Positions 8,446-51,862 of a DNA stretch of 64,000 nucleotides are shown here, in pieces. A program made the translations under genes and the position numbers. Origin of the DNA: Reclinomonas americana ATCC 50394 (lineage: Eukaryota); NCBI GenBank assembly GCA_048213135.1, contig PS015014.1, positions 60,973 through 124,972 of the forward strand, written 5' to 3'. Every line of letters begins with the position of its first letter. The first letter of the stretch is position 1. Below the pieces are notes generated by a model. That model was not told the DNA's origin. It made no database searches and saw only the letters and a list, made by a program, of their open reading frames with translations.

Positions 8446-10834
8446 CTAGAGACCATTGCACGGAGAGGTGTTCTGTGTGGGGGAAGATAGGAGTGTGTGA
8501 GTGAGTGAGGGAGGTCGTCGACACAGAACAAACTCGTGGCGACGAACCTTGGTCTGGACAGTGCCGGTGACCGTGACTTGATTGGCCTACACAATGGAGA
8601 GGTCAATGTCGCGCATGTGTGTGTGTGCGTGGAGAGAGGAAGCGCGGCGACACCCAAGACAGAAATAAACGCCCACGCACCACAAATGCACATTTCGGGT
8701 CGCACCAGCCGGCACCGCCATCTGTGGCCTGTGATCCAGACACTGTCGAGTGCGACACGTTGATCGAGCCGTACTGGTCGCAGTAGAAGGTGCCACCGTG
8801 GCCACGCGAACTGCCGTTGGCGATTGCACGGTTGTTGGTGAAGGTGCAGCTGTCAAACGCCGCATTCACATTGTCGCCGATGTACACGGCACCGCCGTCG
8901 ATATTGCTGCCGCCGTTGGAGCTGAACCTGTGTGGATGGACAGGGAGAGAGAGAAGAGAGAGTTAATGCACAAGAGCACAGTGTTGTCGAGTGTTGCATC
9001 AACGAACGTGGACTTGGTGACGACGATGCGGCCCTGCGGGGACGACGCATTCGGGATACCGTACGCATAGAGGGCAGTCGCGGTGGTGTTGAAGAACTGC
9101 GAGGTGAAAATAAGCAGTCGGTGAGGAAGCGCCACGAGGACGAGACGGTGGCGAGAAGCGTACTTGAGCGTTGCTGAGGTTGATGTAGAACGCGCTGCAA
9201 CAGAGACCAGGGAAGCGTGAATATCGCGGTACGTTGTAAGAGTCACCAACCGAACACGCACTGATTCTGGGTGGTGACCGACACACCCGTGGAGACATTC
9301 TCGAAAGTGAGACTGTGGAGTTAACGAGATGAAGGCACGTGTGAGAACATTGCTGGGGGGGGGGGGGGGAGAGAGAGAGAGAGGAGGAGAGACGACGTAN
9401 NNNNNNNNNNNNNNNNNNNAAGTGAGACTGTGGAGTTAACGAGATGAAGGCACGTGTGAGAACATTGCTGGGGGGGGGGGGGGAGGGAGAGAGAGAGAAG
9501 ACGGGGAGTGAACAGACGTGTCAGCCTGGAACTCCGAGTATCCGCTGGCCACAGACAGGCCAATAGTGCCGCCGGTGACGCTGTGGAGGGAATAACAGAG
9601 TTGTCAACGGCTGGCACCTGTGAAAGAGTGCAGAGGCACGAGCGCTGCGCAACGTCACTCGCGACGCCAGAATCGACACCTTGGCCGGCGGGAAGTCGTC
9701 TGTGGACGGACATTCAAGCAACTCAGCACACACCAGAGAGAGGGAGGGAGGAAAGAGGGAGACGGGCAAGTAACGCGACTGTAAGGGAATGCAATTGCTT
9801 TGCCATTGTTGACAAAGTTGACGTCCGTCAGAGTCGAAGAGCCATTGCTCACGGCCAGACCGGTGTCGTTGTTCCAGAAGGCGCACTTGTTGAAATTCAC
9901 AGTGGCAGCAGCATACACGGCACCAAAACCGCTGTTGTACGCACTGTAGTGGTGCACCAGAGAAAATTAAACCCAGTGAGAACACGCACACGCGAAGCTT
10001 GACACACAGAGCTTGAGGCACGCAACAAGTCCGCAAAGCCAACGCCGGTAAACTGGCGAAAGAATGCAGCAGAGAGTGAACACAACAAAGCACCAGCATG
10101 AGCGACACGCACGCAGTGACCTCACCAACACATTCACAGACGGGTCAAACGTGAAGCCGACGATTCCTGTGCATAAGAAGGAAAGAGAGCGCGAGGCCAG
10201 TCAGCCACGATCATTGTTCCGAGTCGTCATCGCATCACAGTACCAGAACGGCCCTGTCGCGGCACTCAGTGAGGATGCAGTGTCAGAGTGGCAACATACT
10301 CTCATCAACAGCTACGCAACCTGGCCTGAAAAGTACGCCTGACTCGGCGAATCCACTGTGTGTGTCTTGCAGTCAAAAATAGTGGACATGCAACAGTCAA
10401 TGCGTGGTGAGACACACCAGATGAATCCGCGACAATGTTGACGGACTTGGTGATGCCTGTGTGCAGGCACATGTCACTCTCACGCGCTCAGCATTCGTGA
10501 CACGCGCGCGCACACACACACGCAACGAGGGAAGTTGATGGAGCCCGTGTACACGCCCGGCAACACGTACACGGTACCGCCAGGGTTCACTGACGCGATG
10601 CCCTTGCTGACAGTGAGGTACGGCGATGCATATGTACCACTGCCAGTGGTGTCACTGCCAAAGGGACCGATCCTGTGCGTGTGCGTGCGTGACGTGTTAC
10701 GTGTTGTCACATGGTGGGGGTCAGTGCTATCACTGCGCAGTCACGAACCAGACAGTGTTGGTCGACTGAGCATGGACGACAGTGCACAGAAGTACCAGTG
10801 CAACAGTGACGACGACGGTGAGGCGCGGTGACAT
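8446..10834 (-). CDS. Secreted right-handed beta-helix / pectin-lyase-fold protein (DUF1565-like N-terminus), copy 1
   Basis: Signal-peptide-like MSPRLTVVVTVALVLLCTVVHAQ; WIGPFGSDTTGSGTYASPYLTVSKGIASVNPGGTVYVLPGVYTG; CAFWNN, CTFTNNRA and GG(T/A)xY repeat-like motifs. Confidence 0.75.
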
Positions 10835-10913
10835 GGCGTTGACGTGAGATCGTCGGAGAAAAAGGAGTGCGTGGTGCAGGACGCTGCGATCTAATGTTTG
10901 TTCGGTGCATTCT

Positions 10914-11228
10914 TCACCCATTGTTCTGCGCCTGCCACATGGAGGCGTAGATGCCATTCGGGTGTCGTAGCAGTTCGCTGTGAGTGCCACGCTCCGCAAT
11001 CGCACCATCCTTCAGCACTAGAATCTGCGACCGATTGGTGAGTGGCAAACATGACAGAAGTGGACGCTCGCTAGTGGGCAAGGAGATGTAGTGGTGGTGG
11101 TGGTGGTGGTAGTAGTAGTGGTGATGGTGGCGGTGGTGGTGGTGGGTGGCACGCAACTTGATCAGCACCGGCAATGGTGGCCAGACGATGCGCAATGACA
11201 ATACTGGTGGTGCCGGAGCGTCCGCTCG
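10914..11228 (-). pseudogene. Orphan duplicate of the last exon and part of the penultimate exon of the ABCB transporter at 14305-17674
   Basis: [17 protein letters not shown] / [36 protein letters not shown] is nearly identical to 14305-14600, and no upstream ABC exons are present. Confidence 0.8.
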
Positions 11229-11466: not shown

Positions 11467-14224
11467 TTACTGGAGACCACTGCACGGAGAGGTGTTCTGT
11501 GTGTGGGTGAGACATGCGAATGTGAGTGAGAGGGAAGTCGTCACGCGAAAAGCTCGTGTCAACAAACCTGAACTTGGACGGTGCCGGTGACTGTGACTTG
11601 CTTGGCCTGCACCAATGGTGTGGTCAATATCGCGTGTGTGGAGAGGAAGCGTGGCGACACAAAGTAAAAAGAACCCATGGCCACGAACCACAAATGTACA
11701 ACTTGGAGCACACCAGCCGGCACCGCCATCTGTGGCCTGCGATCCAGACACAGTCGAGTGCGACACGTTGATCGAGCCGTACTGGTCGCAGTAGAATGTG
11801 CCGCCGTGGCCACGTGAACCGCCGAGGGCGATTGCGCGGTTGTTGATGAAGACGCAGCTGTCAAATGCCGCATCTACATTGTCGCCGATGTACACGGCAC
11901 CGCCGTCGACATTGCTGCCGCCGTTAGAACTGAACCTGTGTGGATGGACATGGAGAGAGAGAAGAGAGAGTTAATGCGCAAGAGCACAGTGTTGTTGAGT
12001 GTTGCATCAATGGACGAACGTGGACTTGGTGACGACGATGCGGCCCTGTGGATTTGACGGACCATACGCCCAGAGAGCAGACGACGTGGTGTTGAAGAAC
12101 TGCAAGGTGAAAATAAGAAGTCAACGGAAAAGCCACGAAGATGAGAGGGTGCATGCAAGGCGATAAACGGTGCGTACCTGGGCGTTGTTCAGGTTGATGT
12201 AGAATCCGCTGTGGAAGCATGCGCGCATCATCCGTGAATATGGCAGCACGTCGCAAGGAGCACGCAAATTAAACACACAAAACTACTCACTTGTGCCGAG
12301 ACGCGACTGACACACCGTTGGAGAGATTTTCAAAGGTGAGACTGCATGCGCAGGGTCGACAGCATTAATGCGTGTGAGAACAATACGGGAGAAGGTGGAG
12401 ACAGGGAATGCACAGACGTGTCAGCTTGGAACTCCGAGTATCCGGCGGCCACTGACACACTTAAGCCAATGCGACCGCCGGTGAAGCTGCAGAGGACATA
12501 AAAGACAGAGATGTAAACAACTGGCACTTGTAAAACATCGCGAGTCCGAAGGCAACAGCGGAACTTCACTCGTGACGCCAGAATCGACGTTTTGGGTGGC
12601 GGGTTGACGCCTGTTTGCAATCAAGATACTCAGCACACCAGAGAGGGAGGGAGGGAGGGAGGAAAGAGGGTGGCAAAACGCGACTGTAAGGGAACTCAAT
12701 GGCTTTGCCATTGTTGACAAAGTTGACGTCGGTCAGAGTCAATGCGCAGCCATTGCCCACGGCCAGACCGGTGTCGTTGTTCCAGAAGGCGCACTTGTTG
12801 AAATTCACAGTGGTGGCAGTGGCAGTCACAGCACCGAAACCGCTGTTGAACGGGCTATCGTGGTGCACCAGAGAAAATAATCCCCAGTGAGAAGACGCAC
12901 ACGCGAAGCTTGACACGCAGCGCTTGAGGTACGCAACAAGTCCGCAAAGCCAACGCCGATAAACTTTTGCAAGGATGCAGAAGAGGGTGAACAAAAAATA
13001 GCACCACCATGGGCGACACGCACGCACGCAGTGGCCTCACCGACACATCCACAGATTGATCAAACGTGAAGCCGAGAATATCTGTGCGCAACAAGGAGAG
13101 TGGGCCAGCCAGTCACGACCACTATTGTTCCGAGTCGCCGCATCACGACACAGCGTACCAAACCGGCCCTGGCGCGGCGCATTGCACACAGTGAGGATGC
13201 AACGTCAGAGTGGCAACATACTCTCATCAACAGCTACGCAACCTGGCCCGAAAAGTACGCCTGACTCGGCGAATTCACTGCGTGTGTCTTGCAGTGAGTG
13301 AATGGACATGCATCGTCGCAAATGCCGGAAGATACGAACCCGATGAATCCGCGACAATGTTGACGGACTTGGAGATGCCTGTGTGCAGGCGCGTGTCACT
13401 CTCACTCACTCAACAGATGCGACACACGCACACACACACGCACACACACACGCAACGAGGGAAGTTGATGGAGCCCGTGTACACGCCCGGCAACACAAAC
13501 ACGGAGCCGCCTGGGTTCACTGACGCGATGCCCTTGCTGACAGTGAGGTACGGTGACGCGTATGTACCACTGCCAGTGGTGTCACTGCCAAAGGGGCCGA
13601 TCCTGTGCGTGTGCGTGTGTGACGTGTTACGTGTTGTCACATGATNNNNNNNNNNNNNNNNNNNNNNNNNNNNNNNNNNNNNNNNNNNNNNNNNNNNNNN
13701 NNNNNNNNNNNNNNNNNNNNNNNNNNNNNNNNNNNNNNNNNNNNNNNNNNNNNNNNNNNNNNNNNNNNNNNNNNNNNNNNNNNNNNNNNNNNNNNNNNNN
13801 NNNNNNNNNNNNNNNNNNNNNNNNNNNNNNNNNNNNNNNNNNNNNNNNNNNNNNNNNNNNNNNNNNNNNNNNNNNNNNNNNNNNNNNNNNNNNNNNNNNN
13901 NNNNNNNNNNNNNNNNNNNNNNNNNNNNNNNNNNNNNNNNNNNNNNNNNNNNNNNNNNNNNNNNNNNNNNNNNNNNNNNNNNNNNNNNNNNNNNNNNNNN
14001 NNNNNNNNNNNNNNNNNNNNNNNNNNNNNNNNNNNNNNNNNNNNNNNNNNNNNNNNNNNNNNNNNNNNNNNNNNNNNNNNNNNNNNNNNNNNNNNNNNNN
14101 NNNNNGGTGGTCAGTGCTACCACTGCGCAGTCACCAACCAGACAGTGTTGGTCGACTGAGCATGGACGACAGTGCATAGAAGTGCCAGTGCAACAGTGAC
14201 GACGACGGTGAGGCGCGGTGACAT
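11467..14224 (-). CDS. Secreted right-handed beta-helix protein, copy 2 (tandem paralog; gap in first intron)
   Basis: Same exon structure and motifs as 8446-10834; ends QNTSPCSGLQ*. Confidence 0.75.
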
Positions 14225-14304
14225 GGCGTTGACGTGAGATCGTCGGAGAAAAAGGAGGTGCGTGGTGCAGGACGCTGCGATCTAATGTTTGTTCGGTGCA
14301 TTCT

Positions 14305-17300
14305 TCACCCATTGTTCTGCGCCTGCCACATGGAGGCGTAGATGCCATTCGGATGCCGTAGCAGCTCGCTGTGAGTGCCACGCTCCGCAATCGAACCGTC
14401 CTTCAGCACAAGAATCTGCGACGGATTGGTGAGTGGCAAACATGACAGAAGTGGACGTTCGCTATTGTGTGGTGGTGGTGGTGGTGGTGATGGTGGTGGT
14501 GGTGGTGATGGTGGCGGTGGTGGTGGTGGGTGGCACGCAACTTGATCAGCACCGGCAATGGTGGCCAGACGATGCGCAATCACGATACTGGTGCGTCCGC
14601 TGGCCAGCGCAGCAATCGACTCTTGGATTTCGCGCTCCGTGGCAGTGTCCAGCGACGATGTGGCCTCTGCAGTAATGGTGAACGAGGGGGGCTACGGATG
14701 GAGAGCGGCAGCACGAGGAAGCACGAGTCGCAAACCGTCGAACAGCACTACGCGACTGTCCTTCAGGAAGCACCTCGCAATGCCGATGCGTTGTTTCTCT
14801 GCTCATACATTCACAACAGTCAGGCATGACGACGGTGAGAACCTCAACGCCCCCCACACACTCTCGCACCACCGCCGGAGAGGCGGAGTCCACGTTCGCC
14901 CACCAGCATCTGATATCCCTCCTCTAGTCGATCCACAAAGTCATGAACGTGCGCCAACTTGGCGGCACGTATCACCTGCACCAAAACAGCACACTCTCAG
15001 CTTACAGGATTGCAGTGGCAACCCATATGTACTGGTTGCCAACCTCGTCGTGTGTGGCTCCCACACGTCCGTACGCTCTGCGCGCATCACACTGCTCTCA
15101 CACCGAGCACAGAAACTGCAATCGCGTACAACAGCAACACTCACATGTTGTACTCGACACTGTCGTGCAGCAGCGAGGTATCCTGCGGCACGATACCAAG
15201 CTGCCTTCGCAGTGAGTGCTGAGTGACGGACCGCACGTCTTGTCCATCGATCATGATTGCTCCACCGTCCACCTAATTGTGCAGCGTGAACTCGCTGCTC
15301 CGTGTCTCCATGGATGCACACAACGCAACATCAAAGTGCCGGAATAGTAGCTTGCCGATGGTGCTCTTGCCGGCTCCAGAAGGCCTGCACGTAAGCATGC
15401 ATCGGTCATACCCGCACTGCAATCACATTCTTTCTAGCAGCATACCCGACAATGGCCGTCTGCTTGCCGGCCTCGCACACAAAGGAAACGTTGCGGAGAA
15501 CGGCAGGCCCATGAGCATATTGGAAACTAGCGGAAAATCACCACGTGAGAACGGGAACACTCGATGTAGACTTTTCAATCTCATCACACCTGACATTGGC
15601 GAATTCTACTCGACCCTTCTCGACCTGGAGACACGTCGCGTCACTCGCATCGACAATGTCACACGGCTGCACGGCACACAGTGCCACTCTCGGTGAGTGC
15701 TTGCCTCTGCGCGACCTCACTCGCTGAAGCAGCTCACCGTATCCTGCAGCGCAAACATTGGTTCCATGTCGGTGAGCGCATCCTTTGTCATCCTGTGTGC
15801 GTGTTTGCGCATATCATGAGCGACAGACACCCTTTGCAATCAGACATGCTATCGCAACTGATACGAATTTGCCAGCTCGCCGAGTGGTGCAAACACCAGC
15901 TTCAAGTACGTTTCACACAGCACCAAATCGCCGACACTGAAAGAGCCTGCGGCAATCCATGCGTGAGTACCACCGCACATGCCACGACACAGTGTATGCA
16001 TGGTATGGCATCCACCTTCGAAAACTCGCCGCGCGGCCACCAGCAACACAATGACCTGCACGACTCATCAACATGCTGGTCAGTGCATCATCAGTCCACT
16101 GCATCGAAGAGAACACGCACATTGCCGAGACCAACGATAAATGCTGCGCGTGGTTCCGCGAAAGCAAATCAGCAAAACATCAACTCCCTGGAATTCCTAT
16201 CGAGCAGGCGCAACTCTGTGTCAGCGCCAACGGTGCGGAGCTCGCCGTGGCCACCACACTGCCGTGAGCAAACTGCTTCATGGCCTCTGCGTATCGCTCC
16301 TCCTCAACACTGAGAGAGAAAGAGTGAGAGAGAGATGACCACGCAAGGCATCGCTCCACCACGAACCGCTCATTGGCCATGTATTTGACTGTCTCGATCT
16401 GCATGAGAGGCAGGCAAGTGAGAGTGACGTCAGAAGAGGAGCAGATCTCGTGTCAGACGCGAACATTGAGCAGGCCGTCCATGGCGAGAGCCACAGCATT
16501 CGCCGCGTGACCGTCGCGGTACCGTCGAAACTGTCACTGCGCACTCAGCCTGCGCGCGCTCAGACACACAGTGACACGCACACATCGCAAACCTTGGAGC
16601 GCCACTCCGATATCAGCAGCGTGGCGCCAATGTATGCCACGCTGCTAGCCAGAATCACCAGAAAGATGAGCCAGTCGTACTGTGTGCGCACATCAACACC
16701 CTCCAGTCAGCCACATGCGGTGACGCATTCCCCCGACAACACGAAACAAACCGTGGTCAACACCACACCACAGCAGGCGACGATTTCCAGCAGCGTCGGC
16801 AGCGTGCGCAAAAAGGCATGATCGAATACCGTACTCATGCCCGCCGTACCTGCGGCAGTCGACGGCATGGTAAGCAAGACCAATGACCTGCCAGCAGGCC
16901 CGCCAACCCACCTGTTTCCATGGCTCGCAAAGTCTGACGAGACGCGAGTGAGTGCATGGCACACCTTCGAGCATGCGGCTCGCACGCAACTTGAGCCGTC
17001 TTGCGGTGAACGTGAAAGGCCAACGAGAGCGACTGGATGTGTGCCAGTGTGGACACCGACGCCGTCGTGATCCCATGCATTTGCACCTGCAGCGTCAAGG
17101 CAAGTCAGCACTCTTCTGCGTCGCGTACGCAACCCGCGCACAGTACCACGCAGCATTGATGAACAGCGAGTTGCGCAGATCAGTCAGCGCCTGTCGCACA
17201 AACTGACCGACGGCGACATACACGATCAGCATCGTCGTGCGCTCCCTCAGTGACGACGACTCGTCGCCAAGAACGACGGCCTGTGGCAACGGTGCAGCAG

Positions 17301-17782: not shown

Positions 17783-20700
17783 TTAGTTGTCTGCGGATAG
17801 CGACGACTGGCTGGCACTATGGACCGACGCCTCGTCCGTCTGCGTCTGCTTCCGCCACATTTCCGAGTACAACCCATCCTCCAACTGCAGTAACTCATTG
17901 TGCGTGCCACACTCGGCGATTCGCCCGTCCTTCAGCACCAGGATCTATGCGTGCGCCACTCAGTACCACAAACCGCGACAAGTCACCTCTCTCACGCTGC
18001 AGCAAGCGCACGCGACAAACCTTGTGGGCGTTCGCAATCGTGGCCAGTCGATGAGCGATCACGATGGAGGTTCGACCGCGGGCCAGTGCCGTCATCGAGC
18101 CCTGGATGGCCAGCTCGGTGGCGGAATCCAGCGATGAGGTGGCCTCTGTGTACAACGTAAGCAAGAGAGCACGCGAATTGTGGGAGGGTGTCATCGGCGG
18201 ACGACACTGACCGTCGAACACCATGATGGGACTATCCTTCAGGAAGCACCGCGCGAGCGCAACGCGTTGCTTCTCGCCACCAGAGAGACGGAGACCACGC
18301 TCACCGACCTTGGTTTCATACTTTTCCGACAGGCCTAATGTACACACGTGTGAGGCAAGCGAGGCAACAACGACACAGCGTGTAAGCATTCACCATCAAT
18401 GAAATCGTGAATCGCCGCCTGCTGCGCCACATACTCGACCTCCTCGTCTGTGGCATCGCGCTACGAGAGGGCGAGTAGTAGTGAGGAAATGTGGCATTGG
18501 GAGAACTGCATACAACTATGGACGAGAGAACCTTGGCGTACGAGATGTTGTACTTGATCGTGTCGTTGAACAACACTGTACAGAGAGCATGCAATGAGCG
18601 CGCATTCAAGTGGAGCGAACGAGGCAGTGCGACGACGCACCAGTATCCTGTGGAACCATGCCGATGCTTTCACGCACTGATGCCTGCGTGCACAGCGCAA
18701 TGTCTTGCCCGTCGATGAGGATGCGACCGCCGAGGACGTCGTACAGGCGGAAGAGTAGTTTCGAGATACTGCGAGGTAGGAGTCAGCTCATCCACGAACG
18801 TCCAACGAAGGAAGATCATGCGCCACGCGACGCAACGTGCTCTTTCCGGCTCCCGATGAGCCGACAATGGCCACCGTTTGGCCGGGCTCACACGAGAATG
18901 TCACATCGTAAAGAATCGGTCGCCCATCGGAATACATGAAAGTGACGTGATCGAACTCGACTCGGCCCTCCGTGACGTGCAGCGGTTGGGCGCCAATGAC
19001 GTCGGTCACCGTGCGTGGCTGTGCCGCGCACACAAGAACAGAGGAGGAGGCCAGCGAGTGAGTCGATATGTGCGGGACGGAGTGAGTGCTCCAAGAAAGA
19101 CTGACCTCGTCCAGCAAGTCGATCATGTCTTCCAGATCTGCGGTAGCAGTACGTTTTCGTAAGGAGGGGAACATGCATGATGCAGGGTCGACAAGATTAC
19201 CAATCAAGCTGTTCTTGGTCATGCGGTACGTCGTGCCGAGGAAGTTGAGTGGCTGCACACCAAACAGTGAGTCAGTGCGGCAATCCAAGCACACGCCAGT
19301 GCGCAAGCAACTCACCGAATACAGTTGTGCCAAATATGCTGCAAATCAACAACAAGAGTTGGCTGACGTGCTGAAGAACCAATCGAGAACAAGGAGAACG
19401 CAACTCTGAACCAGCACCACGTCGCCGACCGATTGCTCGCCTGCGCCGTGATAAGGAAACAACAGAGGTGCACAACTCTTCGACACCACCAACGAACCGT
19501 AGACCACACGATACGCCGACAGCATGACAATCGACACTGTTCCCACACCCATGATGAGTGCCTGCGTGACGTTGAGGAAGGCCAGCGAGCTCGTGCTGCG
19601 CGAATTCGCGACGCCGTACTCCTCCATCGCCTTGTCATACCGGCCAACTTCAGCACTGCATTGGAGAGAGAGCATCAGTTTCACAGTCCCTGTCACCGCC
19701 TCCACCACAGTGACGCACGCTTCCTGCGAAAAGATCTTGACCGTCTCTGCGAGAGCGCTATCCTTTAGCATCGACAGCGGAAAAACGCACGAATCACGAT
19801 TGTACACGCACCATAGTTGAGCAGCGAGTCCGTAGCGATTTGATTCGCCTGCATATACGCACATGAGAATGACGATACCGGTCACCTTGAAAGCAGTGGA
19901 CGGCTTACCCGGTTGTTGGCGTCATTCAGCGATCTGCAGCAGAGGGGGCGGTCATGCTAGATGCACAGTAACGACAGAGACAAGGAGATGAAACGAACCG
20001 TCGGAATTTGGTTCTCCAGTCGGTGAGGGCCGTCTGGCGGTAGAGTACAGTGAGACGAGAGTGGGTTCACTTCATCTTCACAACACATACGCAACTGTGG
20101 CCCAGGCGTACGAAGAAATAGTGACAATGACAATAATCGCAAAGATCCAGTCGTACCGCGTCAATAGCACAATGCACACCAACAAGATCTCCAGCACCTG
20201 CACACGAGAGGCCATGCAGGTGAGAAGAAAGTGAGCAAGGCAGAATTCGGTAGGAGAGCGCACCAAGGGAACAATCGAGAACAACAGGAAGCTGAAGATT
20301 ACTCTGCAGAGGGATGTAAGCACGGCAGTGACTCTCCGCACACGAGAGAACACAAACGCACGCACCCAATGGCCGACGTGCCACGATCCATGCTTCTCAG
20401 CACTGCAGAAAGAACATGAAAGCAAAAGAAATGAGCGAGGTGTTGAAGACGGTGGCCCATTGGATTTCGTGTGCAAGACCTTGGCCAGTTTTTCTGTGCG
20501 ATCAAAGAGTCAGTGAGAGACATTACGCTGCGAGCCACGCATGGCATCACTCGAAATCACGCACCGCTTCACGTGAAACGACACGGACAGCGATTGCAAG
20601 TGGCTGAAGGTTCGCGTCGATGCCGTGCGAAGAGCGTTTGTCGATACCTGCACAACGCAGTCAGCACAGCGCGCCAACAGGGACTGGCAAAGGTACAAGC

Positions 20701-33400: not shown

Positions 33401-36400
33401 TGCGGTTCGTGTGTCGTCCGTGTGTGTGTGTGTGTGTGTGTTGTGCATGTTTCAACTCAACGCTTTGCTTCGTATCGGATGGCAGGTGGACATGTCGAGG
33501 CTCCTCGTGTCGGTGCCAGGCTGTTCCACAAAGACAAGTCGCAGTTCTCGACCATGTTGTCGGTGTCGAATGCGTTCAGCTTTAGTGTCGTTGTCGACCG
33601 TTCCTCAACTCCGACGTCGCTGAGCTGCAAGGGATTGCTGGTTGTGCCAGAGGTGGGTGTGACCGTGTTTTCGTTGCGCTGGATTGCATACTGAGGAGAC
33701 AATAATGCAGGTGCAACCGCCAGTGGAGATGTTTGAGCAATTGTTCCACGTCGAACAGTTGGATGCGCTGTTCCACTACACGGAGGCGGTGCAGACAACT
33801 GGCGAAGGGCTTCGTGCAGAGCGTGATCGCATCGGTTCATCCAAGCTGCTGAACTGCCTGTTGCGAACGTCGACCCTCCGCATGTTGTCGGTGTTGGTCA
33901 GCCAGGAATCGTTTGTCGAGTCACTGGCGTCCAGCGGCCGTCTGTCGAGTCTCCTGGCGTTGTCGTTTGAGACTGCCCGCGCCGAGCGACCAATCAAGGA
34001 GATCGAGGATCTGACCACTGGCGCCATGACCTGGCTCCTCCGATCGGGCGTCTCGCAAGCGAACTCGGAAGTGAGGGTCACGTTTGACGGTACGGAATCG
34101 TCGCCCCTCGACACTGATATTGTCCATACATTTGTTTGTTTTTGTGCTTCGCTCATGCAGCATCTGCGCATGCACAGGCACGGTGCAGCTGAACGTGCTC
34201 AATGGTTTCGATCAGTGGGATGGCTTTGTCTCCGACACCAATCTCGGTCGTACTGCGAGCTTCCCGCCCACTCCCGTGCGCTACTTGCATTTCGAGTCGT
34301 CGCTGCCGTCTGCCGCCGAGATCAACGGCAAGGTGGTGCTGTTGTACGCTGCGCGCGATTTCGAAGAGCGAGTTGCGTTCCCACGGCCTGCTGCTGCTGC
34401 TTTTATTTTTGCAAGCTGATGGTGATTGCTGCTCTTGGCGGTGCTGCAGATTCAAACGCTGCAGAAGAAGTTCACGCCAGTGTGCATTCTGGTCCAGGCA
34501 ATGTCCGACGCCAATGTGCCTGCCAGCTTGACTGCTTTCAAGCAGGCATCGCGTGGCTGCCCGGTGCTGCGAGTGACGCGTGACTTTACCAATCGCCTGA
34601 TTGACGAGCTCGGTATCGAGAATCCGCTGACCGTGTTTGCTTCCGCTCTGGCCGACAACATGTCAAAGGATGTTGCGTGTGGCGTGTTTTTTGAGATTGG
34701 CGCCTCACCCGTTCACTTTAACAACTCGTGCACGGCCATGCAGTATCCTCGCGAGTATGCCATGAAGGCACTGGAGAAGTGCGGTTACGATACGACGCAA
34801 GCGGGTGAGTTGGGCGTGCTCTCTCGGGCAGTCGCCACACGTGACGTCTAATACGGTCGTGTAGAGAACTGGCTCAAGTACAACTACGAGATGTTGCTGG
34901 AGGAGGAGGAGCTCAACAAGGTGATGGCGCAAGAAAAGGATCGCGTACGCAAGCGCGACACGGAAACGACAACGGTGGCCAAGAAGGAGGCCTTCGACTT
35001 GTGCAAGATTCTGCGCAGCAACGTCACGTTCCTGGACGGAGGTTTGTGAGTTGTCGTGACAAGGAGAAACACAGCCCCGCGCGCTCACTGTTGCGTCAGT
35101 GGTTACCGGCGAGTCGCTGGCGGATATCTTTGGTTCCCCCACCACTGAGTTCCCTGGTATTGTCAAGTACCACTTTGCGCACCTCAAGCCCAAGATCTTT
35201 GGACAAAATGCGTTTGCCCAACCCGGAGGCTTTGGTCAGCAGCCTGGCGGCTTTGGCCAGCCGGGAGGCTTTGGTCAACCTGGTGGATTTGGACAACCGG
35301 GCGCCGGCTTTGGCCAGCCGGGATTGTTTGGTCAACCGGCAGGCTTTGGCCAGCCTGCACTGTTCGCTCAACCTGCGGCCCCCTTCGGGCAGCCAGCATT
35401 CGGTCAACCTGCTGGCTTTGGTGGTGGAGTGCTGGACGGACAACAGCAACAACAATTGACGGTCAACTCTGTCACCCATGACTGTGCGTTGGTTGTTTCC
35501 CCCCACATGCGGTACCCTTGCTGCTCGGTCTCACTGCGTCTCGATTCACGCACACACTCGCAGTGCTCTCGTCGCTGTCGAGTTTGCATGTGCAGTACGC
35601 GCGCCACGCGGTTATCTCGATGGTTGCCCGCTGGCCACTGCCTGTGCCGTTCTCCAGTCTCGGCGATACCGCCACCGTGTCCAAGATCGTTCGTCTCACG
35701 CACGTGTGCTCGGATGTGGTGCACAAGGTGCCGCTGGTGAGCGAGCCCACTCTGGCGCAGGATCGACTCGCCAGTATCCTCTCGCACGAGGTCGCCGCCA
35801 ACGAGTTGCGCCTCTGTGCTCTATCTATCCTCAGTCGCTCTGATTTATGTGTGTCCTGTCCTCACTATATATGCATCTTGCAGGAGCTGGCTGCGCGGCA
35901 TCATGGTTACCGATGTGTTGCAGGCTCTGGACATTGATCCGAATGCAAATACTCGCTCGGTGATGTTTGAGAGCGAGCATCCGGTACGTCTCCGCACACT
36001 TGCGTGTAGTACGGAGCTCCTGTTTCACGTTTCTCTTGGTTGCTGCAGGTCATTCCGCAACAGCGACCGCCGATGCGCGTGTCGTTGCCGGGCGCGCCCT
36101 CTCTCGTTATTCGATTGGATCCCGCCATGGACTTCTCAGTGAACGAGTTTCTGTGCTTCTTCCGTCGCGAAACTTGCCAGCCGCAAGATCAGCTGGGGCG
36201 AGTGGGCAGTGGACAAATCATTCCGCCGAGTATCACGTTGCCTGTCGACACGTGCTGGTGAGAGCGTGCATGTGTGTGTGCGTGCGTGCATTTATTTCCT
36301 GCTATTGAGAAAGTTCATCGTTTGGTGTTTGCGTGCATTCTCAGGGTCGTCTACCAGGCCGAGATGTGGGGCCGCCAGAGCTGGGGATTCCGGTTTACCG

Positions 36401-39400: not shown

Positions 39401-42400
39401 ACAGGTTCGCCATCCCACGCGGCTGCCTGCCACTGGAGAGCGAGCACCTGTCTCGTTGCGTCCNNNNNNNNNNNNNNNNNNNNGCGGTAAACGCTCATGC
39501 ATGTGCGTTGCCTCTCTCACGCGCAGCGGCGTGCTACAGAGGTGCGAACCTGGGTCGACGATGTCATGTCGTGCTACGAGACTCTGTTGGCGGCGCAAAG
39601 CGGCGAGGCGATTTCCGAGGCGTTCATGGACCGCTGTCTCGAGGGCGAAGGCTTGCCGACCGGTGCGTGTGTGCAATGTCTGTGAGACCAGACGCGTGGC
39701 GGACTTGAGTTGACTGATGATGGTCGCAGAGACCACACTCGCCTTGGAGGTTTTGTCGTGCGATGTGCCGACACGTCCGGGCGACAACATGAGTCTGTCG
39801 ACCCTCACGGAGAACGATGGTGTGGCGTACACGTTCCGCAAGGGTCGCAATGTGCACGTCTCGTTCCGCATGGACGAGGACCAGGACTTTTTGCTGACCA
39901 AGATCCGAGTGTCCCCCGGGTATGTTGCTAGCTGTTCAGCGTGCGTTTTGTTTTGTTCACTCGGACTTACCACTGATTGGTACAGTGCGTTCGGCTCCAA
40001 CCTGAGTGGCATGGTGTTTGTCACGGACGGTTTGTGTCGAATGTTGTTGTCATTTGTCGTACTCACCAACTGAATGCGCTTTCTTTATTCCGCTGCAGAG
40101 AAACCGCAATTCGACTCGCTGAGCTGGTGCGATGACTACGAGGAGGAGCGTTTCAAGAGTGCGTGGTGCTCTCTCTTCTTGGTCAAGTAGAGCCTTGCAC
40201 GCCGTGTGCTCATCTGCGGTACAGAGTTCGCCGAGCGTAAGCGCGGCCTTGGCCAGGAGTGGCGCCCTCACGAACCGGTGGCGTACTTTATGTGCAACTC
40301 TGGAGCTGCGCCGACCACCAATGTGGCCGAGGTGCGACGCGGTCGCTACGTGACTATCAGTTGCGGATGCTGTCGCACGAGTTGTGCGAGTCTCTCTGCA
40401 TTCTGACCTGCAATCCACACAGAGTTCATCCAGTCGTCGACTCCGCACGAGATCTCTGTGACGTTTGTGGAATTCACCGGCGTGCCTGGCGTCCATCCGG
40501 TGAGTGTGCACTCATTTTTTTCGCGCCACTGCACTGCATTATCTGCTCATCGCATTGTTTTTTTGCAGTTGGCGCATCTGTACGGACAGCCGTCACTGGC
40601 CACCGAAGCGGACCGACTGCGTCTTGAGCTGAAACGCAACATGGTGTTCGACACCAGTTGGACCAGCGAGCATGACCGCGAATTGGTGGAACTGGTTTGT
40701 GGAGACTGGAAGAGGCGCACTCGTGCGGTGATGGTGGTTAACATTCGACATGCTCATTGCGTCGACAGAGTCAAGTGTGCAGCAAGCGGTGGGGTATCAA
40801 GCCGTCGTCGGTCGACGTGTTCATGTTGAAGCCGACTGCCGAGGATCTGATGCGTTTCTACGCGCTGCGGGTGCGCTCGTTGATGTTCACGTGGTAGTGG
40901 GTGTGTTTTTGCATAACGAATGCTGGCGTGCTGTGCGCAGCGAGTCACCAAAGTGGAGACACTTCGTGCACGCCTCGCCATCATCAAGATGCTGAATCGC
41001 GCCGTCGTTCCGCTGCTGCGCTATTGCACGCTGTTGCCCGATGCGGTGACAGAAGAGGGATCGCTCAGCGCTCGCATCTTTGAGGTCAAGGAGGCGCTGT
41101 ACTTGCACAACAAGACGGCGTTCTGGAATGCCGTGCTGTCGCAGACCACGGAGCGCAACGGTGGTGGTGGCCTGTTCGCTTCGCGCGTGTCCATCAATCG
41201 TGTGAAGGCCACGCTGGCTCGCACTGGTTGGTGGTGTGTCAGTGCGTGCCGTGAAAGACTGTCTCATTTGCTGATCGCACGTGCAATGCAGAGCCTGCCA
41301 AGGATCCGGATGGCGCCAAGTCTATCTTTGGACAGTTGTACGCCTCTGTGCACCTGATGGCCCCGCGCCAGCTGCGACACAATCGCCAGTTGTGGAATGT
41401 GGAGTTTGTCGGGTGCGGTGTTGGTCCTCTCACTTCTTCTCCATGTATTCGACTGTTCCTCACCCCTGCCATTCCACGCTCGCAGCGAGGGGTCCATCGA
41501 TGCTGGGTTCGTTGTTTTTCTCACTCTTGTGCTGTTGCTGCAAGCTTTGCTTGATCCTCATGGCTGTTGCGTATTGCCTGACACATTACTCAGTGGACCT
41601 TACCGTGAGGTATGTCATCACGTGCAAGTGTTGTGGGACGGGGGCTAACAATTGACTTGTCGTTTCACAGTCGATTACGCTGGCTTGTGCCGATCTCATG
41701 TCGTCGGCCACCCCGCTGTTTATCAAATCGCCCAACGGTCGTCACGGGCTCGGCATCAACCGGTGAGTCGCGTGGAGAGGGAGAAAGAGAGGAGGAGGAG
41801 GAGATGATGATGATGACCAAGATCAAGGAGGGCAAGAGAAGGAGGAGTAAGAGGAAGAGAAGAAGGTATTATTTGTGTGCTGACGTGCATGCGCCGCAGT
41901 GAGAAATTCATTCCGAATCCGAGTGCGACGTCGTCGTTGCACCTCGACATGTATCGTGTCGTCGGCATGCTGATGGGAGTGTCGCTCCGTTCACGCTTCC
42001 CGCTTGCGTTCGACTTGCCTTCCATTGTGTGGAAGCGACTGGTACGGGCGTGACTGCAATTCGTGGGTGCGTCTCTCACATCCANNNNNNNNNNNNNNNN
42101 NNNNNNNNNNNNNNNNNNNNNNNNNNNNNNNNNNNNNNNNNNNNNNNNNNNNNNNNNNNNNNNNNNNNNNNNNNNNNNNNNNNNNNNNNNNNNNNNNNNN
42201 NNNNNNNNNNNNNNNNNNNNNNNNNNNNNNNNNNNNNNNNNNNNNNNNNNNNNNNNNNNNNNNNNNNNNNNNNNNNNNNNNNNNNNNNNNNNNNNNNNNN
42301 NNNNNNNNNNNNNNNNNNNNNNNNNNNNNNNNNNNNNNNNNNNNNNNNNNNNNNNNNNNNNNNNNNNNNNNNNNNNNNNNNNNNNNNNNNNNNNNNNNNN

Positions 42401-45400
42401 NNNNNNNNNNNNNNNNNNNNNNNNNNNNNNNNNNNNNNNNNNNNNNNNNNNNNNNNNNNNNNNNNNNNNNNNNNNNNNNNNNNNNNNNNNNNNNNNNNNN
42501 NNNNNNNNNNNNNNNNNNNNNNNNNNNNNNNNNNNNNNNNNNNNNNNNNNNNNNNNNNNNNNNNNNNNNNNNNNNNNNNNNNNNNNNNNNNNNNNNNNNN
42601 NNNNNNNNNNNNNNNNNNNNNNNNNNNNNNNNNNNNNNNNNNNNNNNNNNNNNNNNNNNNNNNNNNNNNNNNNNNNNNNNNNNNNNNNNNNNNNNNNNNN
42701 NNNNNNNNNNNNNNNNNNNNNNNNNNNNNNNNNNNNNNNNNNNNNNNNNNNNNNNNNNNNNNNNNNNNNNNNNNNNNNNNNNNNNNNNNNNNNNNNNNNN
42801 NNNNNNNNNNNNNNNNNNNNNNNNNNNNNNNNNNNNNNNNNNNNNNNNNNNNNNNNNNNNNNNNNNNNNNNNNNNNNNNNNNNNNNNNNNNNNNNNNNNN
42901 NNNNCACACACACACTCTATCCACACTTTCTCTTTCACAGTCTTTCTCTCTCTCTCTCTCTCTCGCTGTCATCTCATTCTTGTTTGGTCACTGATACTCT
43001 CGCTCCCCGAAGCATCCTCGGTCTCAGTTGCACACAAGCATACATGCACATACACACTCCCTTTCGTATCTCTCTCTCTCTTTCTCTGTCCCTCCCCCTC
43101 CCTCTCTGTTCTCCCTCCTCTCTCTCTCTCTTACCTGCACTTGCGGGGACGACGCCGAGTAACCCGAGTACTTGGTGTGGCGCTACACAGTCCACTGATA
43201 AGTGACGCGATTAAACACACGCATGTACAGCTACTCGTAATCACACACCTTAAGCGTCGCCACGTCAATGTCGGGCTTGCCACACTGCGGGAGACAGTGA
43301 GTATCAAAATGCAACCCGCCTCGCCTTTAAATGCACGCGCGACACACACGCAACGACGAGCAGCTCCAGCTCGGACCACGAGAAGAGCGACAGCACGCTG
43401 ATGGGAACCACCGACGCCAAACCGTTGCGCATGGCCTTCAATTGCGTCACGCTCTCGTCCAAACGCGTCTGCATCACGAGCTCGACAAACTCGTCGCGTG
43501 TGTCAAACCTGTGCCAGTGTTAACACACGAACATATGCGCGCACATACACACCACAGACGACGCAACGTCACAGGAATGTCCTTGCCGCCCGGCTTCAGT
43601 TCCTTCTCCGTTCCATCACTGCAAAAGCAAAGCAAGATGTGAGTAACACACACACACAACACAAGTTGCGCTGTGCTCTCGCCACACGGCGCACCTGAGC
43701 TGCGTCGAGAATGTCTCGAGGAACACGTCCTACGGCGGCGGTCACACCGTGAGCAGAGTACGCAAAAGTCGCACGGCGATACGCACGTTGCACGCACCTG
43801 GAATACATCACGACCAATCTTCTTCACTTCGTCGAGAGCCTGCACGCAAAGCTTGTCGACAGCTTCCAGATCGGACGGATCGACTGGCAGCGACAGCTGC
43901 GTCACGTGTGAGNNNNNNNNNNNNNNNNNNNNAGAGAGAGAGAGAGGCACAGATCATTTCGGCACGGAGACAGGTCAGGCTGATAGAGGAACTGTTGCAT
44001 ACGCTCCTGCTAATCGCGTGAGCGTGCAGTACTTGTGGCGTGCACTGCAGTCCTTCACCGCCGAGGAGCGCCAGCTGTTCCTTCGTTGCGTCATTTGTGT
44101 TCTGTTCGTGCGTGATACGTTGTTGCTAACAGTGCAGTGCGTGCATCTGCAGGCTTTGTTGCGTTGTAACCAGGAGTACATTATTTCCTCTAAAGAATGG
44201 TCTGACCTCACGAGAATTGTGTGCTGCAGGTGTGGGGTCGCAATCGCCTGCCGCCGAACGACGATTCTGTTGCGTTCCAAGTCGTGCACTTATCGACTGT
44301 GTGTATCTTCTCACTCTGCTCACGACAACTTGTTGGCAGTGTTGCGAACTCTTTGGCAGTGAATATCATGCGGTCTCTGCGCGTGTTGCTCACGCACATT
44401 ATGCAGGGGACTGTCCATTCACCATCAACCGGTTCGGAGGACACGCCAGTGACGAGACTCTACCGGTGAGACTCCCCTTCTCTGTTTGTGTGAGTTTGCT
44501 TGCTTGTGCACAAAGTGCTCACTGTGTTTCTCGTTGCGAATCAGGTGGCCCACACATGCGTTGCGTTCATTTTTTCTGTTTCGCATTGCTCCTTTCGTGG
44601 TTCGGGGACTTACCGTCTCTCCGCCTCTCCTTCCTGCGACACGCACGAGTAGTGTGAGTCAGATGTGCTTGCCGTCTTATGTATTTGTCTCATTGTGCTC
44701 ACGTGTGTTTTTTCGCACAGTGTTGCGTCTTGTCGAGTAGTGCGGTGTTCTTGTGCAGTGAGAGACTGACATCCCGTTTGTGTTTCCGCGGCTCGCTTTT
44801 CGGTGCCTCCATAGCGTTGCGTTTGTTCAGCCCATGCGTGCAATTGTTGTACCTGACAGACTTGGCTGACTCTTTTTTCATACGCACAGTGTTGCGTTGC
44901 GCCACTCTGCGTTTGCATGGCAGGTGTTGTACTCACTGGTTGTTTATTTACATCGCTCGTGCTCGCTCGCTCTTCGCACATGCAGTGTTGCGTCTCTCGT
45001 AATCTGCTTTCTAACTGCCTCGATTGTGTGTCACTCACTTGGTCGTTTCTTGCATGTCCTGCAGCTCGGTTCGGCTGTATTTTGCTGTCTTTGTGCATGC
45101 TGAATATCTGTTGTGATTTTGAGTGCTCACCTGTGCCACCTGCAATTCGCCCGGTTCGATGTGCACAGCTCGGTGAGTGCAGTGTTCTTTTTGAGTCACA
45201 AGATGGTGATTCTGATGCGTTTNNNNNNNNNNNNNNNNNNNNNNNNNCTTGGTGGGGGAACGTGCAGACTTGCCGGAGTACACGTCGCAAGATGTGCTGC
45301 GCGAGCGCATCCTGTTTGGTGTGTGTTCTTGATGTGCAACGTTGTTGTATTTCAAATGCCTTGCTGAAGTTGTTGTTTTTCCAGCCATTGTCAATTGCCA

Positions 45401-45694
45401 GGCTATCGATACCGACTTCAATCCGGAGAGGTGATTAGTGTTGTGAAGTGTGTGTTTAACTGTGACTTGGCTAACTCTGTTTGTAATACACAGCTCTGCG
45501 TGCGTCGCATCGTGTCACGCACATCTTCTGCGGTGATTGCTTGTTCCTCACATTTTTTTGTTGTTGAATGTTGCTGTACACAGCTGGTATGTTATCGTCC
45601 AAGAGGGTTGGGAAAAGGTGTAAGGTTGGCAATGGTGAGTGTGTGTGACGGTTCTTCTCGTGTGTGCAGGTTGGATGCCGGTGTCGAGGAGTGA
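22812..45694 (+). CDS. Giant HECT-domain E3 ubiquitin ligase (HERC/HECTD4-like C-terminus) with LamG/ConA-like, UBA-like, FG-repeat and SPRY regions; very many exons
   Basis: Start MGQSLS; LamG-like FTVEMWIR..WTHVA..FNGNMAELRIW (~25720-26760); UBA-like YPREYAMKALEKCGYD; SPRY GKWYFECEV; HECT VEFVGEGSIDAGGPYRE..LPSIVWKRL..LFLRFVWGRNRLP..LPVAHTCFFSLDLPEY..AIDTD; stop at 45694. The single-gene extent is inferred from continuous same-strand exons across gaps. Confidence 0.85.
30346..30410. repeat. (GT)n microsatellite, intronic (CA/GT and GA/CT tracts are common in introns of this window)
   Basis: Uninterrupted gt run visible in sequence. Confidence 0.95.
35210..35428 (+). repeat. Coding tandem repeat (GQPGGF-like, about 18-nt units) within the HECT ligase
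   Basis: AFAQPGGFGQQPGGFGQPGGFGQPGGFGQPGAGFGQPGLFGQPAGFGQPALFAQPAAPFGQPAFGQPAGFGGG. Confidence 0.9.
43135..43896 (-). CDS. Internal HECT-domain exons lying in reverse orientation within gap-bounded contig 42905-43912
   Basis: LSLPVDPSDLEAVDKL..FSTQLSDGTEKELKPGGKDIPVT..WSELELLVCGKPDIDV..YSASSPQVQ joins exactly between plus-strand ..VWKRL and YLWRALQSF.. Confidence 0.9.
44560..45267 (+). other. Micro-exon chain: 1-nt exons at 44653, 44721, 44815, 44890, 44986; 4-nt exons at 45065-45068 and 45169-45172
   Basis: Each is flanked by YAG and GT; concatenated T+T+C+T+T+CTCG+CTCG+AC = TTC TTC TCG CTC GAC (FFSLD). Confidence 0.88.
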
Positions 45695-51071: not shown

Positions 51072-51862
51072 GCAGTACCAGCAGCAGATGTACGCGCAGC
51101 AGATGATGGCTCAGCAGCAACAGCAGCAGATGATGATGGCGCAGGGTATGCTCCCGTACGGCGCCGCTGGCGGTTATGGAGCTCACCAGGGTGAGTTCCA
51201 CTCACCCCCTCCGACCGTGGCGTTGGTATGTACTGACTCCACTCCGTAGGTATGATGGGCGGAGGTCTTGGAGCTGGCCTGCCGGGCATGCCTGGTCAGT
51301 CAGCGCCACAGCCTGGCGTCGGTGGTGGCTTTGGAGCACCTGCACCCGCACCAGTGAGTGTCACGTCTCGTGTTTCTGGATGATTGCCACTTGTTGATTT
51401 GATTTTTTTGTGTCGACGCAGGAACCCGCTGCCCCTGATCCATTCGCGGGCATTGTGGACTTGAAGCACGCTAATGTGGCCAAGAAGCCTGCCGGTGCTC
51501 CCGCTCCGGCACGCCCAGCTGGTATGTTGCTTGCGCGCTGACGCATGCATTCTCATGTCTGTTTCGTCGTTTGACGTGTTTTCTTGCGCCAGCTGCCCCG
51601 GCGGCCGCACCATCAAATGGATTCGGCGACGCGTTCGGCGCCCCTGCTCCCGCTCGTGCCCCGGCACCCGCTGCCTCGTCGATGAGCAGCAGCGATCCGT
51701 TTGGTGACCCATTCGGTGCTCCGGCGCCTGCGCAAGGTACGACAAACGCTCCCGCTTGCACCTCTCAGTCTACGCCTTCTCACACCATTCTCTCTCCGCA
51801 CAGCGCCGAAGCCTGCAGCTGCTCCTGCGGCGGCCGCTGGCAATCCGTTTGACTTCTTCTAA
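48525..51862 (+). CDS. ArfGAP with NPF/NPY and FG repeats (AGFG/HRB subfamily-like)
   Basis: Spliced CFSCSTRGNVYAVLPFNIFVCTHCAGIHR (CX2CX16CX2C); HRVKGIGMANFTPDEVKALQEGGN; NPY/NPF repeats; ends GNPFDFF*. Confidence 0.88.

Follow-up and report, generated by a model that had tools for sequence, protein, structure and literature searches.

A putative chain of single-nucleotide exons beside the catalytic cysteine codon of a probably HECTD3-like HECT ligase gene in Reclinomonas americana

The 64,000-nucleotide (nt) stretch of Reclinomonas americana ATCC 50394 DNA analyzed here, called the window below (GenBank assembly GCA_048213135.1, contig PS015014.1, positions 60,973 to 124,972 of the forward strand, renumbered from its first letter), carries a gene for a HECT ligase in which the codons next to that of the catalytic cysteine appear to be assembled from a chain of micro-exons, several of them a single nucleotide long. 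The window, from a GC-rich and very intron-dense eukaryote, is a draft scaffold of ~57% GC with 17 runs of N, 10 of which have a fixed length of 20 N and the remainder varied sizes. The Pfam HECT family PF00632 was matched by two single exons, 43355-43507 on the minus strand (E = 7.6e-09, profile positions 138-187) and 41901-42041 on the plus strand (E = 1.8e-05, profile positions 25-69). Two small exons of the HECT N-lobe, 41486-41506 (21 nt, EGSIDAG) and 41594-41609 (16 nt, GPYRE), were identified by reading the sequence against the orthologues P0025 and P0097. The C-terminal half of the gene was rebuilt by coordinates, guided by relatives that had been collected with a 51-amino-acid (aa) exon. 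The resulting model consists of six minus-strand exons within contig 42905-43912 and 15 plus-strand pieces between 44030 and 45434, and joins to 714 nt encoding 237 aa and a stop without any frame break; the first codon of the join probably belongs to the CAG of the preceding intron. The joined protein matched P0025 with E = 7e-83 and P0097 with E = 8e-82. Since contig 42905-43912, once flipped, shows exact colinearity with P0025, its orientation most likely reflects a scaffolding inversion. As listed in Table 1, the HECT domain of this gene is split into unusually many pieces, which are densest toward the 3′ end.

The exon encoding VAHTC and the exon encoding LPEY are separated by 708 nt. An earlier note, made from the letters of this DNA, had parsed this interval into eight introns separated by five exons of one nucleotide and two of four, and all of these elements were recovered base for base at the same positions. 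Each of the eight units starts with GT and ends with YAG, all 16 of the 16 splice-site dinucleotides being intact. The exons of 1, 1, 1, 1, 1, 4, and 4 nt contribute the letters T, T, C, T, T, CTCG, and CTCG, and these 13 leftover nt restore the frame and read FFSLD, as the note had claimed, with the Asp codon split between the G that ends exon 45169-45172 and the AC at 45268-45269. The joined frame (...VAHTC FFSLD LPEY...) is open to the TGA at 45432-45434. A catalytic Cys in an [AS]HTC context, located ~35 residues from the C terminus and followed by LP-x-Y, is obtained only when the chain is spliced in. In chain intron 1, the terminal TAG is preceded at a distance of 3 nt by a GAG, the use of which would put an in-frame TAG into the message.

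The micro-exon content of the gene exceeds that described in the earlier note, as two exons have to be added, a sixth of 1 nt (44340) and one of 5 nt (44153-44157). One 138-nt intron between 44268 and 44407 would result in the wrong frame, and the Trp residue whose codon is completed by position 44340 is found at the same place in 7 of the 10 related loci that we obtained from a metagenome scan (see below). The motif FLRFV[WY]G, to which the 5-nt exon contributes, is present in all 10 of these loci. One base between AG and GT on which both the frame and a conserved residue depend is thus found at six sites, namely 44340, 44653, 44721, 44815, 44890, and 44986. Exon 44340 is straddled by a 15-nt near-duplicate (44327-44341 and 44347-44361, 87% identical), and the 3′ end of the intron upstream of this exon reappears just past the next donor; this may be the trace of a small local duplication.

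Table 1. Position of the features in the 3′ half of the HECT ligase gene (window coordinates)
Feature	Position	Strand	Description or evidence
Contig with six HECT exons, between two N gaps	42905-43912	-	Pfam HECT match, P0025 colinearity, joined open reading frame
HECT exons in this contig	43896-43798, 43729-43695, 43618-43568, 43508-43355, 43284-43249, 43182-43135	-	
Ordinary C-lobe exons	44030-44084, 44230-44268, 44407-44465	+	Neighbours of the micro-exons
Introns around the 5-nt exon	44085-44152, 44158-44229	+	
5-nt exon GCTTT	44153-44157	+	Completes Arg and Phe of FLRFVWG
Introns around the sixth 1-nt exon	44269-44339, 44341-44406	+	71 nt and 66 nt
Sixth 1-nt exon, T	44340	+	cag-T-gttgcg; forms Trp codon with GG 44407-44408
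15-nt exon, VAHTC	44545-44559	+	Catalytic Cys codon 44557-44559, followed by GTTGCGT; homologues have [AS]HTC here
Chain intron 1	44560-44652	+	93 nt, GTTGCG...TAG, CTTAC 40 nt from 3′ end
1-nt exon, T	44653	+	tag-T-gtgagt; first base of Phe codon 1
Chain intron 2	44654-44720	+	67 nt, GTGAGT...CAG, CTCAC 19 nt from 3′ end
1-nt exon, T	44721	+	cag-T-gttgcgt
Chain intron 3	44722-44814	+	93 nt, GTTGCG...TAG, CTGAC 45 nt from 3′ end, no AG between
1-nt exon, C	44815	+	tag-C-gttgcgt; completes Phe codon 1
Chain intron 4	44816-44889	+	74 nt, GTTGCG...CAG, CTGAC 20 nt from 3′ end
1-nt exon, T	44890	+	cag-T-gttgcgt
Chain intron 5	44891-44985	+	95 nt, GTTGCG...CAG, CTCAC 50 nt from 3′ end, no AG between
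1-nt exon, T	44986	+	cag-T-gttgcgt
Chain intron 6	44987-45064	+	78 nt, GTTGCG...CAG, CTCAC 27 nt from 3′ end
4-nt exon, CTCG	45065-45068	+	cag-CTCG-gttcgg
Chain intron 7	45069-45168	+	100 nt, GTTCGG...CAG, CTCAC 39 nt from 3′ end, no AG between
4-nt exon, CTCG	45169-45172	+	cag-CTCG-gtgagt; final G opens Asp codon
Chain intron 8	45173-45267	+	95 nt as scaffolded, including 25 N (gap 45223-45247), GTGAGT...CAG
51-nt exon, encodes (D)LPEYTSQDVLRERILF	45268-45318	+	Sequence; tblastn of P0025 and P0097
Intron before last coding exon	45319-45384	+	66 nt
Last coding exon, AIVNCQAIDTDFNPER	45385-45434	+	TGA stop 45432-45434; orthologues end ...NCQAIDTDFNP

The frequency of such junctions was analyzed with a signature consisting of YAG, one to four bases, and GTTGCG, GTGAGT, or GTTCGG, chained at a spacing of 55-140 nt. 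The chain of seven junctions at this locus is unique in the window, and the longest chain on the minus strand was one. Among 80 strands simulated with a first-order Markov model, the longest chain was one in 72 cases and two in 8 cases. YAG plus one base preceded GTTGCG in 5 of 9 instances within 44200-45300, in 0 of 61 instances on the remaining plus strand, and in 2 of 50 instances on the minus strand, i.e., in 2 of 111 instances outside 44200-45300 on both strands. Other AG-N-GT sites were considered and rejected: those at 19405 and 16215 (minus strand) and at 51190 (plus strand) are ordinary exon ends with an open coding frame upstream, and in the case of site 39986, reading of the sequence showed too little room for a following intron.

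The pentapeptide formed by the leftover letters was scored on a family profile derived from the 61 of 150 relatives that bear the motif C-(5 residues)-xP-x-Y. FFSLD reached a score of 17.56, compared to a median of 15.86 (range 7.0-18.5, n = 61) for the relatives themselves. This score was reached by 4 of 150,000 random 13-mers having the local T-rich composition (P = 2.7e-5) and by none of 150,000 13-mers with uniform bases. In the 61 relatives, positions 1 and 2 are each F in 59, position 3 is most often S (23) and position 4 most often L (41), and position 5 is occupied by E or D in 52; the commonest form is FFSLE, with 11 instances. For the pattern TTYTT in the five free positions, the earlier note had calculated a probability of 1/512 with uniform bases, which is arithmetically correct. 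The chain and its leftover letters are beyond chance; this can be read directly from the DNA, as can the anatomy of the chain, the restoration of the frame, and the exact match between the peptide and its family.

These data also bear on the alternative that an exon of 13 nt or more is hidden in the N gap 45223-45247, in which case the ~660 nt upstream would form one long intron and the AG-N-GT sites would remain unused. The gap does exist and the scaffold is flawed, as the inverted contig illustrates, but a family motif scoring better than the median would then be an accident with a P of about 3e-5, and the chain of seven junctions would be accidental as well, although no simulated strand exceeded two. 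Furthermore, at least ~75 nt would have to fit into the gap, three or more times the stated 25; this value looks like a size estimate, because 10 of the 17 gaps have a fixed length of 20 N and the others vary. An intron of 660 nt would also be far beyond the 59-137 nt of the supported introns. A hidden exon is for these reasons highly improbable.

The micro-exon chain, in turn, agrees with the other introns of the gene in several respects. The homology-supported introns (n = 12) measure 59-137 nt, a range that includes the 67-100 nt of the chain units. A branch-like motif had been noted before in at least the first seven chain introns, and CTNAY was in fact present in 7 of the 7 units free of N, while the branch region of chain intron 8 presumably lies inside the N gap. 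GTTGCG is frequent as a donor in the window (70 plus-strand and 50 minus-strand instances, with unconstrained upstream bases), and the heptamer GTTGCGT is found 42 times on the plus and 22 times on the minus strand, compared to ~4 expected per strand. A description of a GTTGCG donor was not found in the literature, as judged by titles and abstracts. GTTCGT, which resembles the donor of chain intron 7, is also the donor of the homology-supported intron 41507-41593. An exon-side splice consensus was not seen in the window.

It is conceivable that the chain is real but only partly or conditionally spliced. The majority of transcripts would then lack a piece or keep an intron and would be degraded, and the chain would throttle or switch the output of the ligase instead of being a constitutive element of the gene. 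With seven micro-exons there are seven occasions for a frameshift, and long distances between branch motif and 3′ end together with competing GT and AG sites could reduce the efficiency of splicing; moreover, 1-nt exons of plant VPS55 are alternatively used (PMC8831610). As the chain carries the same signals as the other homology-supported introns of the gene and its sites are not marked as weak, we consider this alternative unlikely.

A HMMER scan of 1.84 billion representatives yielded 232 matches, the best of which was 60% identical, and the metagenome scan yielded 10 related loci, all of them at most 60% identical and 8 of them uninterrupted across the region. The highest identities of the model were 59.6% (L002), 58.5% (L005), and 58.3% (L003). 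All 10 loci aligned to the 237-aa model without a gap at the Cys region, had C and [LM]P spaced by exactly five residues, and read FFSID, FFTID, FFSLE, or FFLLK at the position of FFSLD; in the case of the 61 motif-bearing relatives, the five-residue spacing found in all 61 is a consequence of the search pattern. L009, a distant relative, was the only metagenome locus with clear introns in the region. Within its positions 1-1000, one GT-AG intron separates the Thr codon from the Cys codon, and two more introns are shifted by 2-3 nt relative to the window introns: one is located at a Met/Val boundary (Val/Cys in the window) and the other within the Val codon of FVWG. These shifts suggest that introns either slid or were gained repeatedly at the same sites.

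Further intron positions were read from protein sequence, in which introns can show as read-through. The read-through open reading frame (ORF) P0140 points to an intron directly after HTC, and P0033 to one after FFSI plus G. In P0005, the nearest relative with a GTTGCGT donor and a protein derived from a 647-nt contig, the residues past LFLR are compatible with such a donor at the position it occupies in the window. Relatives appear to have intron positions at or beside both ends of the 13-nt stretch (L009, P0140, P0033), and an ancestral 13-nt micro-exon appears plausible. In P0019 and P0014, the catalytic HTCFF-LP-Y stretch is replaced by an apparent read-through intron. Gene models of this HECT family seem to fail often at the catalytic stretch.

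The earlier note had assigned the motif at this position to HERC-type HECT domains. The motif itself, TCFF-x-[LI]-[ED]-LP-x-Y, holds true for the family, but the HERC label is unsupported. We compared the orthologue P0097, used in place of the joined protein of the window, to solved structures and obtained HECTD3 as the best relative (E = 3e-65; PDB 9r85 and related entries), followed by SMURF1 (6e-37), with no HERC chain among the best 60 of 72 matched PDB sequences. The C terminus of the window model is NCQAIDTDFNPER, and the HECTD3-type ending is NC-x-AID-x-D. HECTD3 shares this ending and the catalytic TC with P0097, whereas human HECTD3 reads TCSSTLFLP where the family of the window reads TCFF-x-[LI]-[ED]-LP. 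The comparison suggests that the window protein resembles HECTD3 rather than HERC. No RCC1 or other Pfam domain was found in ten long plus-strand ORFs between 27.3 and 41.4 kb, a weak negative result as short exons could hide a domain. The orthologue P0025 contains SPRY and HECT domains; two SPRY-like exons of the window matched no Pfam family, and the SPRY assignment for the window gene is based solely on P0025 and a 9-residue match.

The similarity to these relatives is also relevant for the question of whether the gene is functional. It could be a decaying or non-functional copy in which the chain is spliced inaccurately, with a working paralogue elsewhere in the genome; the gene is seen here as DNA, within a 64-kb window, and the distance from branch motif to 3′ end is atypically long in four of seven chain introns. 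A dead gene is disfavoured because the uninterrupted 237-aa frame formed by 21 exon pieces, the conserved motifs (the catalytic Cys, FLRFVWG, the Trp, and NCQAIDTDFNP, with up to 60% identity to orthologues), and the 16 intact splice-site dinucleotides of the chain would not have been kept. We regard a decayed copy as quite improbable.

Several observations weigh against a spliced chain in a functional gene. Of the seven readable chain introns, four have their last CTNAY 39-50 nt from the 3′ end, compared to 12-25 nt in the homology-supported introns (10 of 12 of which have the motif); three of these four have no AG between CTNAY and the 3′ end. A donor and acceptor matrix trained on the 12 introns did not pick out the proposed chain sites, rated the GTTGCG donors low, and brought up several additional GT and AG sites nearby; this matrix was too weak for ranking sites (leave-one-out scores of 0.3-7), and the junction-signature and peptide tests were used instead. 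A 3′ splice site and a donor only one base apart should clash sterically. The assembly is a draft scaffold with 17 N runs, an inverted contig within the HECT gene, and 25 N in the last chain intron. The organism's own protein was not found, either in the HMMER scan or in a search with the 51-aa exon for proteins of 91-2000 aa, and the micro-exon chain was present in none of the 10 related loci, which are distant (at most 60% protein identity). Finally, the actual removal of the chain introns, its order, and its efficiency are inferred from the DNA sequence.

Splice signals, intron sizes, frame, fit to the family motif, and the gap-free alignment to orthologues together provide strong in silico support for the core of the proposal. 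Taking all points into account, we assign a probability of roughly 0.78 to the reading that the micro-exon chain is real and belongs to the 3′ end of a working HECTD3-like HECT ligase gene.

Intron definition is established for the splicing of short introns. In the mechanism that we propose, eight short GT-AG introns of the ordinary spliceosomal type would interrupt the 13 nt for FFSL and the first Asp base. The recognizable signals, i.e., the donors GTTGCG, GTGAGT, or GTTCGG, the CTNAY branch-like motif, and the YAG end, are all intronic, and with no consensus seen on the exon side the intron alone would be defined, so that an exon could shrink to one base, in line with the 1-nt exons confirmed in plants and Fusarium (see below). 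Only a single base separates each 3′ end from the following donor, and neighbouring introns probably cannot be engaged simultaneously; removal would hence most likely proceed one intron after another, probably 5′ to 3′ as they are transcribed, and each splice would add one base to the growing 5′ exon. The long distance from CTNAY to the 3′ end seen within 44560-45168 might hold the branch complex clear of the next donor. The earlier note had further proposed that splicing has to be ordered and that the chain might act as a splicing-fidelity switch; both of these proposals are hypothetical.

Recursive splicing in the long introns of Drosophila uses ratchet points with zero-length exons. As in the window chain, a 3′ splice site abuts a 5′ splice site, the intervening sequence is removed stepwise, and the upstream exon is re-used. 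Ratchet points, however, leave nothing in the mRNA and split very long introns, whereas the steps in the window would each leave one or four coding bases and involve short introns. Introners are multi-copy introns of similar sequence, and stwintrons are nested introns with no exon base between them. Both share with the chain an unusual crowding or nesting of introns that has arisen by intron gain; introners differ in that no copies were found for the 14 window introns compared, and stwintrons in that no exon base separates the nested introns.

The origin of the chain was addressed by sequence comparison of its introns. The 15-mer CGCACAGTGTTGCGT at the 44721 junction occurs again, exactly, at 44883-44897, and a third junction is 80% identical. 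The chain introns are not copies of each other, and the program TRF found no tandem array. When 14 introns were compared to the 64-kb window with blastn-short, no introner-like copies were found, only two matches at chance level (13 and 18 nt). Local intron propagation is a possibility for the origin of the chain. One conceivable route of re-insertion would be reverse splicing of a just-excised neighbour followed by 3′-biased reverse transcription and recombination. The sharing of CGCACAGTGTTGCGT, the crowding of introns at the 3′ end, and the flanking introns of the relatives are compatible with a routine in which the spliceosome assembles codons base by base in a strict 5′-to-3′ one-base ratchet and in which the cluster arose by repeated local intron re-insertion into an ancestral 13-nt micro-exon. 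In its full form we put this proposal forward only tentatively, as it is rather doubtful.

An ORF rich in GFGQP repeats (FG-repeat-like) and with no Pfam match, which may or may not be part of the HECT gene, is located upstream of the HECT domain on the same strand (35060-35740, plus). A tandem segmental duplication (9485-11209 and 12387-14593, 82-94% identical, with a 460-N gap between the copies) was observed, and introns with GTTGCG donors on the minus strand were copied along with it. A search against Rfam gave no matches.

One base is the known minimum for the size of an exon. Isolated 1-nt exons have been confirmed experimentally in plants (PMC8831610) and in the Fusarium gene CYP621A (PMC12940212), the plant genes concerned being APC11 and VPS55 (PMC4674806, PMC8831610); the Fusarium paper of 2026 ranks CYP621A as only the second gene reported with a 1-nt exon (PMC12940212). 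The exons of APC11, VPS55, and CYP621A, like those of the window, consist of one base between AG and GT, are needed for the frame and a conserved motif, lie between short introns, and were missed by gene predictors. These genes each have one isolated 1-nt exon, supported by RNA and by conservation across species, whereas the window has five in a row plus two 4-nt exons, and a sixth 313 nt upstream, all predicted from genomic sequence. Adjacent micro-exons that each have their own introns occur in plants, an example being those of 5 and 12 nt in a rice transcript (PMC8831610); that case comprises two exons, both larger than 1 nt, compared to seven in a row, five of them of 1 nt, in the window. 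Tandem runs of 1-nt exons did not turn up in the literature searched, although supplementary tables might list further 1-nt exons. So far as this literature shows, the layout of the micro-exon chain seems not to have been described before.

If the chain is spliced as proposed, exon content would be dispensable for the pairing of splice sites over many consecutive introns, and the gene would offer a natural system in which intron definition, the steric exclusion of adjacent spliceosomes, and the order of splicing could be studied. With its run of five 1-nt exons, the sixth, and three more of 4-5 nt, the locus would also be a hotspot of intron gain. The C terminus of this HECT ligase would be beyond the reach of gene predictors, and such proteins would consequently be mis-annotated as lacking the catalytic motif, as exemplified by the broken model P0019.

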